Part shown: positions 8,470 through 18,243 of the stretch, in pieces
Position numbering within the stretch: the first letter of the stretch is position 1
How the letters are laid out: every line of letters starts with the position of its first letter
From: Ostreococcus lucimarinus
Lineage: Eukaryota
Reading direction: 5' to 3' (one strand)
Assembly: GCA_000092065.1 (NCBI GenBank)
Contig: CP000583.1
Length of the DNA: 64,000 bases
Notes under the pieces: generated by a model
What the model saw: only the letters and a program-made list of their open reading frames with translations
Database searches by the model: none
What the model was told of the DNA's origin: nothing
Position numbers and translations under genes: made by a program

Positions 8470-8657
8470 CGTCGCCCGAGCCGTCGCGCGCGCGCGACGG
8501 TCTGAGACGCCAGGGTGGATTAATGCGGGCAGACGGTTACAGCGGTCGGTCGGTCGGTCGGACAGCGCTGGACGGGCGCGACGCGACGCGACGCGACGCG
8601 GACGCGCGATGGAGCGCGGCGGCGGCGACGAATGCGATGTTATCTCACCGTGCTATC

Positions 8658-9431: not shown

Positions 9432-9517
9432 CTCGGCGGGGCGAGGCGCGCTGAGAGGCGACGCGACGCGTCGACTGAGATTTTACGCGTCGTGACAAAA
9501 CGAGGAAAAAGTACTAT

Positions 9518-9889
9518 TTAGGCCGCCGGATCGCTCGCGCGAATGTCTCGCTCGGCGCTCGCGATGGCGTCGCGCAGCGCGCTCACGGGTGCCTTGGCGA
9601 ACAGACTCGCCGGGTACACCGCGCTGCCCCACGTCGGATGCAAAACCACCTTGCAGCACCCGCTGTTGGTGGTTTGATAATTCAAAAGCGTCACCAACGC
9701 GTCCACCTCGCCGTACACGTGTTGCGAATCGCGATTGATCATCGACAACCCGCTGCACGGATCGATGTAATCGCACCAATACCCACCCGCGCGAAGCGCG
9801 TCCGTCACGCGTTTCGCAAAGTCGACGAAGCGCTCGAGACAGAAATCCTTTTCGATGTCCACGTTTTCCCCGGTCTGCACCAAATCCAT
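9518..9889 (-). CDS. MMADHC: MMADHC-like (methylmalonic aciduria and homocystinuria type D, cobalamin trafficking) C-terminal domain protein. It may be a C-terminal exon or a truncated gene.
   Basis: 123-aa ORF. ALRAGGYWCDYIDPCSGL and GCCKVVLHPTWGSAVY match the remembered human MMADHC C-terminal motifs (ALRAEGYWADFIDPSSGL, LGCCKVIRHSLWGTHVV). An in-frame stop lies 3 codons upstream of the ATG, so the N-terminal half of the domain is not in this ORF. Confidence 0.5.
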   Translation of the reverse strand: MDLVQTGENVDIEKDFCLERFVDFAKRVTDALRAGGYWCDYIDPCSGLSMINRDSQHVYGEVDALVTLLNYQTTNSGCCKVVLHPTWGSAVYPASLFAKAPVSALRDAIASAERDIRASDPAA

Positions 9890-10327
9890 CTTCGTCCGCT
9901 ATCGATCGCGCGATTACCACGCGTGGTCCATCGTCAGTCGTCGTCGTCGCGCGCGTCGTCGTCGCGCGCGTCGTCGTTCGCCCGCGCACCTGACGCGTCG
10001 GCACGACCAACATGTCCCCGACGTCCACCCCCGGGAACATCGCCTCCGCCTCCATCTTGTGCCGCTTCGGGCACGCTGCGTCGCGCGATCGCGCCGCGTT
10101 CGTCGTCGTCAGTCCGCGTCTCTCTCCCGTCTCTCTCGCGCGCGTCGTTCGCGTCGTTCGCGCGACCGTTTCGAGAATTCCACGCCGCGCGTTCGCGGCG
10201 CCTCGCGCGTCTTCCTCGCGCGTCGCGCGCGCACCGTGCGCGGAGTACTCCATGCCCCACACCGTCTTCGTCGTCTCGATCGCCGGCGGCGTCGCGCCCA
10301 TGTCTCGCGCCGTCGTCGCGTCGCGCG

Positions 10328-13300
10328 ATGGCGTCGTCGGCAGTGATGCGCGCGCGCAGTCTCGCGCGTCGCGCGCGAGTCGTCGCCGCGAGCGCGTGCG
10401 AAGCGGCGTCGCTCGCGTCTCGCGCGCGCGCGTCCGGCGCGTCGCGCGCGTCGCGCGTCGCGCGCGGCGGCGCGGCGACAGCTCGACGCGCGATGGCGAC
10501 GACGACGACGGCGACGACGACGGCGGCGCGCGCGCGCGCGACGCCGCGATGGCGATGCGCGACGACGACGGCGACGGCGAGACGCGCGATGCGCGCGATG
10601 CGCGCGGAGACGGACGAGACGACGGCGCGCGCGAGCGACGACGCGCGCGCGGTGTCGTATTGGCGAGAACAGATTCAAAACTACGACGCGAGCGCGAAGG
10701 CGTCGACGCGAGGGATGATCGCGAGACTCGATCGAGACGATCCGCTGGGCGTGGATCTGACGCTGCGAGGGGCGTCGACGCGGCATGGGGCGGGGAAACG
10801 GATGACGCTGTATGATTACGCGAGGACGGTGAAGGCGGCGCATCCGCGGAAAATATCGTTGATTCGAGTGGGAGATTTTTACGAGTGCTTGGGATACGAC
10901 GCGGTGATGCTGGTGATGCACGCGGGGTTGAATCCGATGGGGATTTCGGGGGTGCCCAAGGCGGGGTGCCCGGTGGTGAAGATTCAGGAGACGCTCGATC
11001 GGTTGACGTCGAGAGGGTACTCGTGCGTCGTTTGCGAAGAGGTGCCGCAGATGAATAGATACGGCCAACCGACGCCGCCTAAGGATCGGTACATCGCCGC
11101 GATCGTGACGCCGGCGTCGCCGAATTACGTCAAAGGCGCGGCATCGCAGGGCGAAGACGTCGATTTCGGGGATGGGAGCGCGCCACCGGTGATTGGGCTC
11201 GCGAGCAGCGCGCTCGGGTACACCGTAGTCACCGTCGAACCGGATCTGCGTCGAGTATCCGTCCTCGAGGGATTGACGGCGGAAGCCGCCGCGGCGAAGC
11301 TGTCGGCGGGCGGCATCGCGCCGCCGCTTTACAGGCACGCAAGTCTGGGAAGTGGTCACGCACAGAGCGGTCGGCACGCGGCCGGCACGAGCGCGCCGAG
11401 TCGGCGTTTACGCTGGGAGGTGCAATCGATTTTGAGCGCCGCCGAAGGCGTCGACGCGGTGAAATACAACGGCGACGTCGTGGAGAAGCTCCTAGATCTC
11501 GTGCGTTTGGATCACGGACTCGGGCCCGAAGATGCTTTCCATCGCGTGACTGTGCCTAACAAAGGCCGCCCAGCGCCGCTCTCACTCGCGACCGCGCAAC
11601 AGCTCGGAATCTTGCCGTCGCGATCCGTGCCTCCGCTCTTGACGCATCTGTTGCCCGAGAGGTCGGCACCGGCGGCGTGTCGCTCGTACTTACAAGAGCT
11701 ATTGCTTCATCCACCGCCACCTCAAACTGCGCTCGCGATTCAAGAGGCTTCGGTGCTTTTCACGAAGTCGACGTCGGCCATGCCGCAACTCGAAGTCCTG
11801 CCGCCGAGCAAAGTGGCGAAACTTTTGGCCCAACGCGAGGCGAGCCATACATTTTTCGCCGATCTCGCGTCCATGGCGCGCGGTGTCGAGGCACTGCTAA
11901 CGAACAGCAGCGCGGACATTCGTCGTGCCGGACATTTGTTGATCGATCCCACGTCTTTGAAGCTCGGCGCCAAGCTGAACGGCGACGCGCTCGCCAAGGT
12001 GTGCTCGGAGGCGAGCGCGATGATCGAAAACGTGGTGAGCGAAGACGTTCTGAATGGAATCGCAGTTGTTCGTCAGAAGAGCGATGAAGACGAAAGCGAC
12101 GACGAGGATGAGCGCGATGACGCATCTTTCGTCATGGACGGTTTAGATCAACCACTCAAGCTCCTCAACATACCGAACAGATTTATGTTTGAAAACGAGC
12201 GTTGGCGAGGCAGAGTTCGTCGCGAGCACATTCCCGAAGCGATCGATCGGGTTGAATCCGCCGCACGCGCGCTTGAAACGGCAGTGAACGAAGATTTCAT
12301 GCCAATCATCGAAAAAGCCGCGGCCGAAAAGAAGACAAAAGCGAGGAAATGTGAGTTGGAACACGACATGCGAAACAACGCGCTTTGGATGCGTCACGCT
12401 CCAAAAGATGCGATGAAAATGGACGATTTTATTCATCCGCGCGATAGATTCGGAAAAGAGGTCGCAGATAGATGGACGACGGCACGAGTCGAGCTTGCTT
12501 TGGACGATTACAGAGTTGCGACGCAAAAAGCCGCGGTCGCAGTCTCTGACACTCTCATCAACCTCGCCGACGATTTGCAGGAGCACATATCGTCGCTCGT
12601 GGGCGCGGCGACTCTTTCAACGGTGACGATTGCGATTCTCGCCCACGCAAGCAACGCCATCAACAAACGTTGGACGCCGCCAACGCTTCTTCCCGAAGGC
12701 GACACGGCGAGTCCGCTTGCGGTCGAGGGCTTGGTACCGTTTTGGATGCGACTTGATGGCGCGGAGACGGTGCCGAATAGCTTTGACATCGATGGTTTGG
12801 TTTTACTCACCGGTCCAAATATGGCGGGAAAGAGTACGGTTTTACGCTCAGTGGCCGCGCTAGCGCTTCTTGCGCAGTGTGGACTACACGCACCCGCGAT
12901 TTCCGCCCAAGTACCTCGCTTAGACTCGCTCATAGTTCGAATGGCGAGCACGGATTCCCCAGTCGAAGGTTTGAGCTCGTTTGCGGTTGAGATGCTCGAA
13001 ATTAAATCCATGCTTAGCTCTTGCACCGCTGGTAGTCTGATCATGGTTGACGAACTTGGTCGAGGCACGGAGGCTTCGCACGGCACTGCAATAGGCGGCG
13101 CAGTTGTCGAGGCGCTCGATGAGTGCGGCGCGCGTGGAATTTTCGCCACGCACCTGCACGGCATTCTGGATTTGCCGTTGCGCGTCTCGCCGTGGACGCG
13201 TCGAGCGCGCATGGAGACGGCAAAGTCGGATGATGGAAGCACGCGCCCGACGTGGAGAATGGTCCCAGGCGAATGCCGTGAGTCACTCGCGCTCCAAACC

Positions 13301-13831
13301 GCCCTTGATTGCGGTATTTCACACGCCATCGTCGCTCGAGCCAATGCATTGCTCGAGGAACAAACGAGCATCCCGCTCGTAAAGTTGAGCGACTCAGAGC
13401 AGGCGACGTTGATCGAGAAGCAAGACACCAGCCCGGAAAGACCGCGTGTCGATGGTGAATATTTGAAACTTCTCCTCGCTGAATCAACTGCGCGAGCGCT
13501 TCAACTTGAAAATGCGCAAGTGATTCACGTGGGTCCGAATCAAACGCCGCCGATTGGCTCCGCCGGACAAACGTGCGTGTACATTCTTCGCCGCGGAGAC
13601 GGCTGGTGCTATTGCGGCGAGAGCGACCATCTTCCTACGCGACTCGCGACGCATCGTCAAAGTTCCCAGCGTCTCATCGAGCTAGTGTACGTCGCGGTGC
13701 CGAAAGAAGCGGGAGGAAAGAGCGCCGCGCGCGCCCTCGAGAGCCGCGTCATCCAAGCGTTACAGCGAGCGCGCGTGCCGTTGTGGTCGGATCAAGACGC
13801 CGCACACAAACATTTTGGCGCCGCAGGGTGA
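10328..13831 (+). CDS. MSH1: MSH1-type organellar MutS homolog with a C-terminal GIY-YIG endonuclease domain.
   Basis: MutS domain I: LIRVGDFYECLGYDAVML. MutS ATPase Walker A: LLTGPNMAGKSTVLRSVAALALLAQCG. Extreme C-terminus: CVYILRRGDGWCYCGESDHLPTRLATHRQ, GIY-YIG-like. The track ORF 9638-13831 has about 230 low-complexity codons upstream that overlap the MMADHC gene on the other strand. I placed the start at ATG 10328 (MASSAVMRARSLARRARVV, a mitochondrial-type presequence). ATG 10492 is an alternative start. Confidence 0.7.
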   Translation: MASSAVMRARSLARRARVVAASACEAASLASRARASGASRASRVARGGAATARRAMATTTTATTTAARARATPRWRCATTTATARRAMRAMRAETDETTARASDDARAVSYWREQIQNYDASAKASTRGMIARLDRDDPLGVDLTLRGASTRHGAGKRMTLYDYARTVKAAHPRKISLIRVGDFYECLGYDAVMLVMHAGLNPMGISGVPKAGCPVVKIQETLDRLTSRGYSCVVCEEVPQMNRYGQPTPPKDRYIAAIVTPASPNYVKGAASQGEDVDFGDGSAPPVIGLASSALGYTVVTVEPDLRRVSVLEGLTAEAAAAKLSAGGIAPPLYRHASLGSGHAQSGRHAAGTSAPSRRLRWEVQSILSAAEGVDAVKYNGDVVEKLLDLVRLDHGLGPEDAFHRVTVPNKGRPAPLSLATAQQLGILPSRSVPPLLTHLLPERSAPAACRSYLQELLLHPPPPQTALAIQEASVLFTKSTSAMPQLEVLPPSKVAKLLAQREASHTFFADLASMARGVEALLTNSSADIRRAGHLLIDPTSLKLGAKLNGDALAKVCSEASAMIENVVSEDVLNGIAVVRQKSDEDESDDEDERDDASFVMDGLDQPLKLLNIPNRFMFENERWRGRVRREHIPEAIDRVESAARALETAVNEDFMPIIEKAAAEKKTKARKCELEHDMRNNALWMRHAPKDAMKMDDFIHPRDRFGKEVADRWTTARVELALDDYRVATQKAAVAVSDTLINLADDLQEHISSLVGAATLSTVTIAILAHASNAINKRWTPPTLLPEGDTASPLAVEGLVPFWMRLDGAETVPNSFDIDGLVLLTGPNMAGKSTVLRSVAALALLAQCGLHAPAISAQVPRLDSLIVRMASTDSPVEGLSSFAVEMLEIKSMLSSCTAGSLIMVDELGRGTEASHGTAIGGAVVEALDECGARGIFATHLHGILDLPLRVSPWTRRARMETAKSDDGSTRPTWRMVPGECRESLALQTALDCGISHAIVARANALLEEQTSIPLVKLSDSEQATLIEKQDTSPERPRVDGEYLKLLLAESTARALQLENAQVIHVGPNQTPPIGSAGQTCVYILRRGDGWCYCGESDHLPTRLATHRQSSQRLIELVYVAVPKEAGGKSAARALESRVIQALQRARVPLWSDQDAAHKHFGAAG

Positions 13832-13907: not shown

Positions 13908-15044
13908 CTAAACGCTCAGACCGGATCCCAAAACGAAACGCTCGATGCGTTTGTCCAAGGGAAACGTCGGCGCGACTTTGAATCCCGTCACCGACTTGAA
14001 GCGCGCGTTGAGCCAAGAACCGAGGCGACGCAGTAAATCGCCTCTACGATGCATCATCAAATCCGCGACGTCGCCTCCATGGCCTTGTTGATACTGAACA
14101 CGCAACGAATCGTGTGTGTTTTGCGATCCCGTGGAGCGCGTCGGCCTCGCGCCGCGGGATGATTGACCCACGCTTTGCGCCGCGTTTCTCCGCTCGTTCG
14201 TAAATCTATCCAGCTCTTTCGACACGTACGCGGCGTTAGATACAGCTTGAAACCGCTGTCTCGCCAACTGTGAAGCGCGCAGCGCGTCCTCTGACGCCCG
14301 CGCCGCCGGCAGCGCGCCCGCGGGAGTCGCGTCGACAGTCACTGGCACGGGCATTTCGCCCACTATCTTACCGCCCGCCTCACCACCCTCGACTGAGTTT
14401 TCTTGACTCGAGTCTCGCACCGCCGAGTCGTCGTCCGACCGCCGCGTGGACGCCGCGCGGTACTGCGCGATCGCGCGCGCCACCGATCCATCACCTCCCC
14501 GACTCGCACCAGCGGATCCACCGTAACTCGGAATCCCGCCCCCGGGCTTACTTCCGCCTCCCCGACTCGCCGCGTACGAAACCGAACTCTCTCGTTCAAC
14601 CACCGCTTTGCTCCACGGCGCCGCGCGCGTCTCCGTCGCCGCCGTCGTCGCCATCGCGGGCGATCCGCTGTCACCGACGATAGAATTCTCGTTCGCATTA
14701 AATCGCACGACCTTGCTCGCGCTCGCCTTGGTCTTCGTCTCCTCTCGTCCGATCATCACGAATTCATACTCTGGCGCCGTTCTCTTCGCCCCCCCCGTCG
14801 CCGTCGGCTTCGCGTTCTCATCCATCTCATCCCTCGCCGCGTCGCGCGCCGTCTCGTAGGCGCTTCGCTTCGCCACCGGTTTCGCCTCCAACCGCGTGTT
14901 CCCCGACGTCGTCCGCTTCAGGTCGTACTGCTCGCCCAGCAGCGCCAACAGCGACGTCGCGTCGAATTTCCCCTCGTTCGCTCCCTTCGCCCCCGTCGTC
15001 CCTCTCGCCGCGCCCGACGCCCCGGATTCGTACGCTGGATTCAT
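13908..15044 (-). CDS. Hypothetical protein with no recognised domain. The start is uncertain: ATG 15044 or ATG 15290.
   Basis: The lower part of the 755-aa minus ORF (13908-16175) has non-repetitive composition (...EYEFVMIGREETKTKASASKVVRFNANENSIVGDSG...LRVQYQQGHGGDVADLMMHRRGDLLRRLGSWLNARFKSVTGFKVAPTFPLDKRIERFVLGSGLSV*). It fills the 1.5-kb gap between MSH1 and the ABCF gene. The part above ~15300 is antisense to the ABCF N-terminus and is low-complexity. An AATAAA motif lies on the minus strand 30 nt after the stop. Confidence 0.3.
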   Translation of the reverse strand: MNPAYESGASGAARGTTGAKGANEGKFDATSLLALLGEQYDLKRTTSGNTRLEAKPVAKRSAYETARDAARDEMDENAKPTATGGAKRTAPEYEFVMIGREETKTKASASKVVRFNANENSIVGDSGSPAMATTAATETRAAPWSKAVVERESSVSYAASRGGGSKPGGGIPSYGGSAGASRGGDGSVARAIAQYRAASTRRSDDDSAVRDSSQENSVEGGEAGGKIVGEMPVPVTVDATPAGALPAARASEDALRASQLARQRFQAVSNAAYVSKELDRFTNERRNAAQSVGQSSRGARPTRSTGSQNTHDSLRVQYQQGHGGDVADLMMHRRGDLLRRLGSWLNARFKSVTGFKVAPTFPLDKRIERFVLGSGLSV

Positions 15045-15366
15045 CCGCGCGTCGCGCTCGCGCGTTCGTCCCCCCCGCGTCCCGCGCGCGTCCTCGTCAT
15101 CGCCCGTTTCATTCAGAATTCTAAAATTTCCGTTCGATCGCCGTTCGCGCGAATTCGACCCCGTCCTCGCGTCGTACGCCAGCACGTCGCTCACGTCCTC
15201 GAACCGCCGCGTCGAGCGCGTCTCGAGCGACGATCCCTCGCTGTTCGGCGCGCGGTCACCGCGTCGGCGTCGATGCGTCGTCGTCGTCATCGAATCCAAT
15301 CGAATTCGCGCGTCGATTACTGACGCGACGCCGCGACACCGCGACGCCGCGACGCGCGCGCGCGCG

Positions 15367-15494
15367 ATGCGCGCGGCGGACGCGCGCGCGGACGCGCTCG
15401 TGCGCGCGCTCGGCGGCGACGACGCCGTCGCGGCGTTTCGCGCGCACTTTGACGACGACACGCGGCGGTTCGTCGAGGACGCGCTCGGCGACGT

Positions 15495-15532
<38 letters not shown>

Positions 15533-15659
15533 TCGACGCGCTGGTGGAGATTTTGCTGCCGTTCGCGGCGGAGGCGATGGGATTGGACGCCGAGGACGAG
15601 GGCGTGGCGCGGCGCGCGCGAGTCGCGTGGGCGCGGCGCGACGGCGGCGGCGACGGCGA

Positions 15660-15693
<34 letters not shown>

Positions 15694-18243
15694 CCGGCGG
15701 TTCCGACGACGACGACGAGGAATGAAAAAGAAAATGATGCGGACGCGTCGACGGCGAGGGACGGGGATCGAGGCGGCGCGGACGCGTCGACGGCGACGGA
15801 TTGGATGGCGAACGCGTCGACGCTGATGCGAGCCGAATTCGAGGCGTCGACGGCGGAACGAGCGGTTCGAAGACGGCCGAGGGACGAGAAAACAGTCAAA
15901 GCGTGCGTCGAGCGCGCGTTCGGGGTCGGTGCGTTCGCGAACGACGAGGACGCGCTCGAATACGTCGCGAGTTTGGTCGCGGCGGACGTGGACGAGGCGG
16001 AGGAGACGCTCGAGGACGCGCTGTCCGCAGTGATAGACGCGTACGATTTGAAGATTTCTGGTTCGGTCGAGGAGGTCTGTCGTCGCTTGCGCGAGCTTTT
16101 GGACGAACGCGCGGAGTTGGAGATTTGTAAGACGAAGCGCGGGGTGACGCCGGACGCGGCGACCGGGGTTCGCAAGCTCGCGAACGTCGTTAAGATGGGC
16201 GACGACGCCTCTCGCCGAGGACGAAAAGGTCAAAGCGTGGACGCCGCGGCGGGACTCATCGGTGGGAGCGCGTTTTGGGAGCAAGAGCAACGAAAGCAAC
16301 AGCTGGAAGAGGAAGAGCGCATGACGGCGCTGGCGAAAGCGAACGCGGAGGCGGTCGAGCAGAAGCGTCGGCGACGAGACGAAAAAGCGGCCAAGGCCAA
16401 GGCCAAGGCGCGCGAACGACAGCTCGAGGAAGAGATTCAAAACATGGAGCAGCTCGCCATCAACGCCGTGTACTCCAAAGGCGCGTCCAGTCGACTTGGT
16501 TCGCGCGATATATCTGTCTCCGAATTTAGTATGCCGCATCCTCGCGGTGGCGACGACTTGCTCGAAGGGACGACGCTGAGTTTGATGCACGGTCATCGGT
16601 ACGGCTTGTGCGGGCGAAACGGATGCGGGAAGTCCACGCTCCTTCGTTTGCTCGCTCAAAAGCGCGTACCAGGGATTCCCGCGGACTTGCGTATTATGTA
16701 TGTCGCGCAAGACTCGAGCGATGATCTCGCCTCGTGCGAGTTGACTCCGATCGAAGTCTTGGTGAAGTCGGACACGCGTCGCGAACTTTTGTCCAAGCAA
16801 CTCAAGGAGTTGCAAGATCACGAGGACGCGGCGGTGGATGTGGCCATCGACAAACGCATTCGGGAAATTTGCGATGAACTGAAAGCTATCGGGGCCTCAG
16901 ACGCGCACGAGCGCGCGAGAAAAGTTTTGCGCGGTCTTCAGTTTGACGCCGAACAGACTAGACGGCCGGTGGCATCGTTGAGCGGCGGCTGGCGCGTGCG
17001 CGTATCGCTCGCTCGCGCTTTGTACGTCAATCCAGATTGTTTATTGCTCGATGAGCCCACGAATCACTTGGACTTGGAAGCGTGTTTATGGCTCGAGCAG
17101 TACATTTGCAACGCGTTCGATGGGCGCACGCTCGTCGTGGTCTCGCACGACCGCTCATTCCTGAACGCTGTATGTACCGACGTCCTAGCGGTGTCGAATA
17201 AGAAGCTCACCGCGTACGCGGGCGATTACGCCACGTATGAAGCCGTGCGAGACGAGCAAAATGCGCGCCAGCAAAAAATGTACGACGAGCAGCAGGCTAA
17301 AAAGAAGCAAATGCAAAAGTTTGTCGATAAACATTTGCACAAAGGTTCGTCGTCCATGTTTGACGACGGAAACGCCAAAAAAGCAAAAGAGTTGGCAAAA
17401 AAAATGGAACGCATGGGTGCCATGGGACACGACGGAAAGAAGTGGAAACTCTCGTACGACGGCGCGCAGAAAGAGCTGACAGCGCCTGAAGTGGAGACCG
17501 GAAGTTTTAAATTTAGCTTTCCAGATCCTGGTCCGCTCCCGTCTAGCGAAAGCGTCCAGCTGCGCGAGATTGCGTTCAAATACGCCGCCGACGAGCCGGC
17601 GATGTTTGATCAGTTTTCGCACCCATTCGACTTGACCACGCGGATTGCGCTCGTGGGTAGAAACGGCGCGGGTAAGTCCACACTCATGAAACTCATCACG
17701 GGCGCGTTAAAGCCAACGCGAGGTGAGATTTTCAAAAGCGGCAAGATGAGAATCGCTCACATCACGCAGCATCACGTCGAACAGCTCGACATGACTATGA
17801 CGCCGCTGGAGTTTGTGTTGCACGTCTCCGGCATCGAACTCAGCGCGTCGACCTCACCCGAGCACGAGCAAGACGCCCGTCGTCGACTCGGTCGATTCGG
17901 TATTTCCGGCTCGCTCCAAACGCAAACCATCGCGCTGTTGTCCGGAGGGCAAAAATCGAGAGTCGCCTGGGCCGTCGCCACGTGGGACGAGCCACACATC
18001 CTCCTCCTCGACGAGCCCACCAATCATTTGGATTACGAAAGCGTCAACGCATTAATCGACGCCATCAACGCTTTCGACGGCGGCGTCGTTTTCGTCTCCC
18101 ACGACGAATTCTTCGTCCAATCCATTCACGGCGCCCGCGTGTTGGAGATCACCGGCGACGGCGCGCCGGGCGCGGTGTCCTTCGACGACGATTTCGACGC
18201 CTACAAGCGCAAAGCCCTGAGAGCCCTCAAACGATGGACGTGA
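15367..18243 (+). CDS. ABCF: ABC-F family ATPase (GCN20/ABCF3-like) with two ABC cassettes and a ~370-aa acidic N-terminal extension.
   Basis: Two Walker A motifs (GLCGRNGCGKSTLLRLL and ALVGRNGAGKSTLMKLI), two ABC signature motifs (LSGGWRVRVSLARAL and LSGGQKSRVAWAVATW), and two Walker B motifs (LLLDEPTNHLD twice). There are no transmembrane domains, so this is ABCF type. I placed the start at ATG 15367 (MRAADARAD...). The track ORF starts at 14896 and overlaps the upstream minus-strand gene. The N-terminal extension has poly-D and poly-T runs. Confidence 0.7.

Follow-up and report, generated by a model that had tools for sequence, protein, structure and literature searches.

The closest described systems to the gene analysed here are animal MMADHC (CblD) and the CblD proteins of green algae. 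In human MMADHC, the N-terminal region is needed for AdoCbl synthesis and the C-terminal domain for MeCbl (PMC7847965). Cys261, located on a β-hairpin, forms a Co-S bond through its thiolate with cobalamin bound to MMACHC, and the human complex is held by this bond rather than by its small protein interface (PMC12501144). The interface contacts contribute little relative to the Co-S bond, and Cys262 is the proposed resolving cysteine when the cofactor is transferred to methionine synthase (PMC12501144).

According to the available text of Dorrell et al. (10.1101/2023.06.07.544158), CblC and CblD accompany METH in the green lineage, chlorophytes for the most part lack MCM, and Mamiellophyceae including Ostreococcus are without METE. 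As described there, the Viridiplantae CblD group accompanies METH, MTRR and CblC (10.1101/2023.06.07.544158 / PMC11439496). Ostreococcus tauri is a B12 auxotroph with metH only and no METE (PMC8399681). MMADHC homologues are widespread in green and streptophyte algae, including Chlamydomonas, Chlorella and Klebsormidium. Annotated full-length homologues from these groups are mostly 163-189 aa; CblD is about 165-190 aa in Chlorella, Chlamydomonas, Klebsormidium, Cymbomonas and Bathycoccus.

We analysed a window of 64 kb, by which we mean the whole stretch of 64,000 nucleotides. A minus-strand ORF in this window (9518..9889, ATG to TAA) encodes 123 aa with similarity to the C-terminal part of MMADHC. 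Our analysis indicates that this ORF is very probably most of exon 3 of a complete nuclear three-exon MMADHC/CblD gene of Ostreococcus, with a 177-aa product. The coordinates of the gene and its neighbors are listed in the table.

Table. Features of the MMADHC locus, ordered by position in the window
Feature	Position	Strand	Description
DnaJ-domain protein, 257 aa	8658..9431	-	PF00226, E=2.5e-23; not part of the B12 pathway
Exon 3 (predicted)	9518..9898	-	Codes R52-A177 and the TAA stop (9520-9518); includes the 123-aa ORF (9889-9518)
C132-C133 codons	9653..9658	-	Equivalent to human Cys261/Cys262 by the ungapped +129 offset; in GCCKV
Intron 2 (predicted)	9899..9989	-	91 nt, phase 0, GTGCGC donor, TAG acceptor
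Exon 2 (predicted)	9990..10075	-	Codes A23-Q51 (ACPKRHKMEAEAMFPGVDVGDMLVVPTRQ); ungapped against human MMADHC and O. tauri
Arg50 codon CGT	9993..9995	-	Cys (VPTCQ) in 10/10 other full-length green-algal homologues aligned; human Thr179
Intron 1 (predicted)	10076..10234	-	159 nt, phase 1, GTGCGC donor, CAG acceptor
Exon 1 (predicted)	10235..10301	-	ATG 10301-10299; M1-H22 and first base of codon 23; from the splice model
MSH1-type MutS homologue	10329..13831	+	Pfam MutS_I and MutS_V; start ATG between 10329 and 10589

Exon structure and conservation of the coding sequence

The initial annotation recognized C-terminal MMADHC motifs in the 123-aa ORF. Both of them, GYWCDYIDPCSGL and GCCKVVLHPTWG, are present. 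The profile search that it proposed gave matches to Pfam PF10229 (MMADHC) above the gathering cut-off of 27 bits, both for the ORF and for the spliced product. The ORF alone matches with an E value of 1.6e-21 and 77.7 bits, a similarity well beyond chance, and covers profile positions 169-264 of 272, in agreement with its assignment to the C-terminal part of the domain. The spliced 177-aa product matches with an E value of 9.2e-31 and 108 bits over positions 123-264, 30 bits above the ORF alone. The G+C content of the window is 60% and the window contains many spurious long ORFs, so ORF length is uninformative here. It is the profile match, and not the length, that marks the 123-aa ORF as a real coding sequence.

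On the minus strand, a TAG at 9901-9899 is in frame with the ORF. It is followed by CGG ACG AAG and then by the ATG at 9889-9887, which places the stop three codons 5' of the ATG, as had been reported. From this stop, the domain was thought to be present only as the C-terminal ORF, with the N-terminal half either on an upstream exon or lost. The first part of this view does not hold, since the remainder of the domain is encoded by two upstream exons. Of the two outcomes offered, the upstream exon is the one that stands. The region singled out for a search, 9890-10330, contains the N-terminal part of the domain on two exons, with GT...AG introns. The in-frame TAG is the predicted 3' splice acceptor of intron 2, and the truncated look of the gene is an effect of two short spliceosomal introns. 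The initial annotation also considered that the ORF could be the 3' part of a differently framed larger gene. This applies in a trivial sense only: exon 2 is in another genomic frame because the 91-nt length of intron 2 is not divisible by three, and the larger gene, too, is MMADHC.

The predicted spliced coding sequence is 534 nt long and encodes 177 aa. The N-terminus encoded by exon 1 aligns with the O. tauri protein (P0001) and with other full-length green-algal CblD proteins (TxTxxGMEYSxH). Intron 1 contains a CTGAC branch motif at 10113-10109, 34 nt before its CAG acceptor. Intron 2 contains an ACTGAC branch motif at 9938-9933, 35 nt before its TAG acceptor. The predicted splice junctions, 10235/10075 and 9990/9898, rest on comparative evidence. 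The 66 codons preceding 10301 contain no in-frame ATG, and the distance from the MMADHC start to the divergent MutS gene is 27-290 nt. A further upstream MMADHC exon is implausible for these two reasons.

A read-through ORF of 272 aa, 9483-10301(-), was also considered as a product of this region and rejected. It has no Pfam match and consists of exon 1, translated intron 1, exon 2 and out-of-frame sequence. It reads through intron 1 because the length of this intron is a multiple of three and it contains no stop codon. Intron 2 contains a near-duplicated CGACGACGACGCGCG motif in the region 9935-9985. The intergenic region between the DnaJ and VPS13 genes (window 8540-8600) contains short simple repeats rich in G+C, (TCGG)n and (GACGC)n. 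The repeats and the motif duplication look like typical Ostreococcus non-coding low-complexity filler.

The nearest annotated relative is O. tauri MMADHC, a 174-aa protein with 81% amino acid identity across 97% of the length. Just one choice of two GT..AG introns brings the O. tauri DNA (L005:3001-3727) into agreement with its protein. Like the window gene, the O. tauri gene has three exons. Its introns agree with those of the window gene in codon position and phase, have GTGCG as donor and carry a GACTGAC branch motif. At the DNA level, the exons are 79-84% identical between the two species (79% each for exons 2 and 3, with 0 gaps). Intron 1 measures 159 nt in the window versus 119 nt in O. 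tauri and is 68% identical with 40 gap columns; intron 2 measures 91 versus 83 nt and is 54% identical. Compared to its O. tauri equivalent, the window protein has three extra N-terminal residues and Arg50 in place of a Cys. The overall divergence is about 20% of amino acids, mostly in helices near residues 80-90 and 155-165. An alignment of 13 green-algal protein sequences has no indel at either exon junction.

A sister Ostreococcus sequence, L006 (JGI 3300016817, 1866 nt), encodes an uninterrupted 173-aa MMADHC (protein P0002, 82% identical). In blastn, L006 aligns with the window in three segments matching the three exons, with position 9990 joined to about 9898. L006 may be a transcript assembly in which overlapping 3' ends were merged, or else a rearranged genomic locus without introns. 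Its MMADHC adjoins a convergent asparaginase-like gene, not DnaJ. Comparisons with O. tauri and L006 gave dN/dS values of 0.21-0.28 in exons 1-2 and of 0.06-0.20 in exon 3. The values for exons 1-2 indicate that the upstream exons are under protein-level constraint, and thus translated.

The exact 177-aa product has no match in a collection of 15 billion proteins, and no full-length homologue at 90% identity or above is present among the matches listed. The public gene set of this Ostreococcus seems to have no model for the MMADHC gene. The exact 123-aa ORF is found on 595 marine metagenome contigs, many of them from Tara Oceans. Four of these metagenome contigs show 2-4 nt of difference to the window in the 1084 nt that span MMADHC.

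Core domain, cysteine pair and residue 50

A phmmer search of the PDB with the 177-aa protein returned MMADHC chains only, with E values of 2e-28 to 1e-26. These belong to human MMADHC (NP_056517; 5CUZ, 5CV0, 6X8Z, 9MRS) and mouse MMADHC (5A4R). The algal protein shares the Pfam family and the nitroreductase-like core with them, at about 33-36% identity to the human protein. Residues 17-155 align with human residues 146-284 at an offset of +129, ungapped across both exon junctions (E=2e-28, 5CUZ).

In an AlphaFold2 (AF2) model of the 177-aa protein, the mean pLDDT is 79.4 and the pTM is 0.77. Exons 1-2 supply three β-strands and one helix to the fold. The confidence of the model is lowest, with block means of 59-70, at residues 101-140, which include the Cys-Cys hairpin. 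A Foldseek search of the PDB with the model gave eight significant matches, all of them MMADHC (E=5e-10 to 1.4e-8); the next match has an E value of 0.15. The target-normalised TM scores are 0.66-0.74 with an rmsd of about 4 Å, which is agreement at the level of the fold and not of the detail.

The predicted 177-aa product consists of the nitroreductase-like core domain only, equivalent to about residues 130-296 of human MMADHC, and has no N-terminal extension or leader. Its start is close to that of the mouse crystallisation construct 5A4R. The human stretch from residue 1 to about 129, which comprises a mitochondrial leader (1-12) and a disordered region (PMC7847965), has no counterpart in the algal protein. 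Dual-branch MMADHC in animals is extended N-terminally by about 110-130 residues, including a mitochondrial leader; the algal protein has no such extension. The conserved core begins at about residue 8 of 177. Because of this early start, the lack of an upstream ATG in 66 codons and the MutS gene 27-290 nt away, the algal protein, itself a member of the MMADHC family, is placed outside the dual-branch type of animals.

The GCCKV hairpin of human MMADHC is conserved in the alga. G131, C132 and C133 are invariant across 13 green-algal sequences. The human residues contacting MMACHC, M186, E194, R197 and E244, are L57, D65, K68 and E115 in the alga. These are conservative substitutions (E194 to D65 and R197 to K68 among them) or identities (E244 to E115). 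In view of the small contribution of these contacts in the human complex, the correspondence says little for or against family membership. Residue 50 is different. The Arg50 codon is identical in four independent metagenome contigs, so it is not a sequencing error, and Arg50 is a fixed trait of the species.

Exon 3 holds the Cys-Cys hairpin and most of the CblC-contact residues, and ATG 9889 is kept as a Met in most Mamiellophyceae homologues (RTKMDL). These two features would fit a stand-alone 123-aa minimal CblD, translated from ATG 9889 after transcription from an internal promoter or with intron 2 retained. This is very improbable, because exons 1-2 contribute three strands and one helix to the core in the AF2 model, and these exons, with dN/dS of 0.2-0.3, are translated. 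In addition, initiation downstream of Met116 yields no productive proteoforms in human cells, and N-terminally truncated nitroreductase-like domains were judged by the authors to be likely non-functional (PMC7847965).

Genomic neighborhood and fragments in sequence collections

The DnaJ gene is located downstream of MMADHC on the same strand, 86 nt past the stop codon. Its protein is 100% identical to XP_001417070.1 from Ostreococcus lucimarinus CCE9901, a partial sequence of 60 aa. The contrast between the complete 257-aa ORF and this 60-aa 'predicted protein, partial' suggests that the reference annotation of the stretch is poor. On the other side of MMADHC is the divergent MutS homologue. 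Its C-terminus has a weak match to GIY-YIG (E=6.7e-4, 20.3 bits, below the cut-off of 22.6 bits). The combination of MutS_I, MutS_V and GIY-YIG is what we take to be the plant MSH1-type organellar architecture. The gene order, with MutS diverging from MMADHC and MMADHC followed by DnaJ and VPS13, is shared with O. tauri, and the metagenome contigs also have the divergent MutS gene. Together with the DnaJ identity and the near-identical metagenome contigs, this order marks the window as nuclear DNA of O. lucimarinus or of a strain almost identical to it.

The other large ORFs in the window encode unrelated housekeeping proteins, including an ABCF-type ATPase, a Cys-tRNA synthetase and an M3 peptidase. 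The window also codes for Kelch, CBS, LRR and GNAT proteins, a DUF1995 protein, a CemA-like protein, an AP mu subunit, TFIIE-beta, Nop53, MnmE, Sec63, a kinase, a mitochondrial carrier and an AAA_34 protein. The ABCF-type ATPase is carried by a stop-to-stop ORF at 14860-18240 (+). The 5' part of this ORF is overlapped in antisense, over about 1.4 kb, by a 773-aa ORF at 13911-16229 (-) that has no Pfam match.

Loss of the N-terminal part, with only the C-terminal 123 codons surviving in a truncated relic or pseudogene, would account for a profile match that spans positions 169-264 of 272 in the ORF alone, and for the in-frame stop three codons upstream. It would also fit the output of prokaryote-style gene callers, which call the 123-aa ORF alone on hundreds of contigs from metagenomes. 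However, the upstream exons are intact and conserved, with canonical splice signals that restore the frame, and exons 1-2 are under purifying selection. The spliced protein gains 30 bits in Pfam, and O. tauri is annotated with a full gene of the same structure. We consider a relic even less probable than the stand-alone protein described above.

An origin in a bacterium or another contaminant, which the 'Candidatus Dependentiae bacterium' label at NCBI of one homologue with 76% identity (P0026) might suggest, has next to no probability, because that homologue is an algal fragment that was binned wrongly, the window gene lies amid eukaryotic genes (VPS13, the MSH1-type MutS, Sec63, TFIIE-beta and Nop53), it is syntenic with O. 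tauri chromosome 3, and it contains spliceosomal introns. All three alternatives were thus rejected in favor of the complete three-exon gene.

Two database entries illustrate how such fragments arise. P0026 (134 aa) corresponds to window 9518-9920(-) and reads MPACVRS|QRTKMDLV, a translated intron tail followed by Mamiellophyceae MMADHC exon 3. This entry almost certainly comes from a picoalgal contig that was wrongly binned into a bacterial MAG. P0143 (182 aa) is a relative of window 9518-10040 (-) in the same 90% identity cluster, with an intron 2 that is in frame and stop-free. We considered whether P0143 represents a spliced transcript and rejected this; it is a read-through that runs from exon 2 across the translated intron into exon 3. 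A recurring artefact in compact GC-rich picoalgal genomes is that genuine genes seem truncated because of their short introns. In the present case, the 123-aa fragment has been deposited hundreds of times through prokaryote-style callers, in one instance with a bacterial name.

Proposed role in B12 handling

By homology with the human system, CblC/MMACHC would bind incoming cobalamin and take off its upper ligand. The β-hairpin of CblD carrying C132 would then insert into CblC and ligate the cobalt via a Co-S bond. The CblC-CblD complex would pass the cofactor to the B12-dependent methionine synthase (METH), and disulfide formation by C133 would resolve the Co-S bond. We infer the partner proteins, localisation and biochemical activity of algal CblD from this analogy. 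Most likely, it would be a cytosolic chaperone that acts with CblC to load B12 onto METH, and would serve the methylcobalamin branch only. The restriction to METH is suggested by the absence of the N-terminal AdoCbl-linked region from the algal protein and the general absence of MCM from chlorophytes. A Pfam scan of 29 large ORFs of the 64-kb window found no MMACHC, METH, MCM or MTRR among them. For MMACHC in Ostreococcus or Micromonas, the only paper that a literature search returned was Dorrell et al. (10.1101/2023.06.07.544158).

The window gene belongs to the vertically inherited Viridiplantae group in the green-lineage CblD set, as far as this set is given in the available text of Dorrell et al. 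(10.1101/2023.06.07.544158 / PMC11439496). Nothing of substance in the window gene differs from that set. The MMADHC gene is an ordinary orthologue of a known gene, and both CblD in green algae and the B12 auxotrophy of Ostreococcus have already been described.

Several green-algal lineages with MMADHC also carry METE. The initial annotation took the gene to bear on whether the alga depends on B12. This does not follow, since homologues are widespread in green algae and dependence is set by the absence of METE. The presence of MMADHC shows B12 use, not B12 dependence.

The three-exon model supplies a complete CblD for Ostreococcus, and its importance beyond annotation hygiene is small. Mildly useful are the corrected model itself, the core-only form of the green CblD, and Arg50 at a position that is otherwise Cys (10 other homologues). 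A broader reading would treat green-lineage CblD as a natural core-only form, equivalent to the human M116/Δ1-128 proteoform, in a lineage without MCM. The ancestral job of CblD would then be METH loading, and the N-terminal extension that routes B12 to mitochondria would have been added later in MCM-bearing lineages. Taken together with a species gene that appears to be absent from public proteins and its Arg50, this reading seems to us evenly balanced between holding and failing. The core-only CblD fits the missing mitochondrial MCM branch in chlorophytes and the need of Ostreococcus for exogenous B12 for METH.
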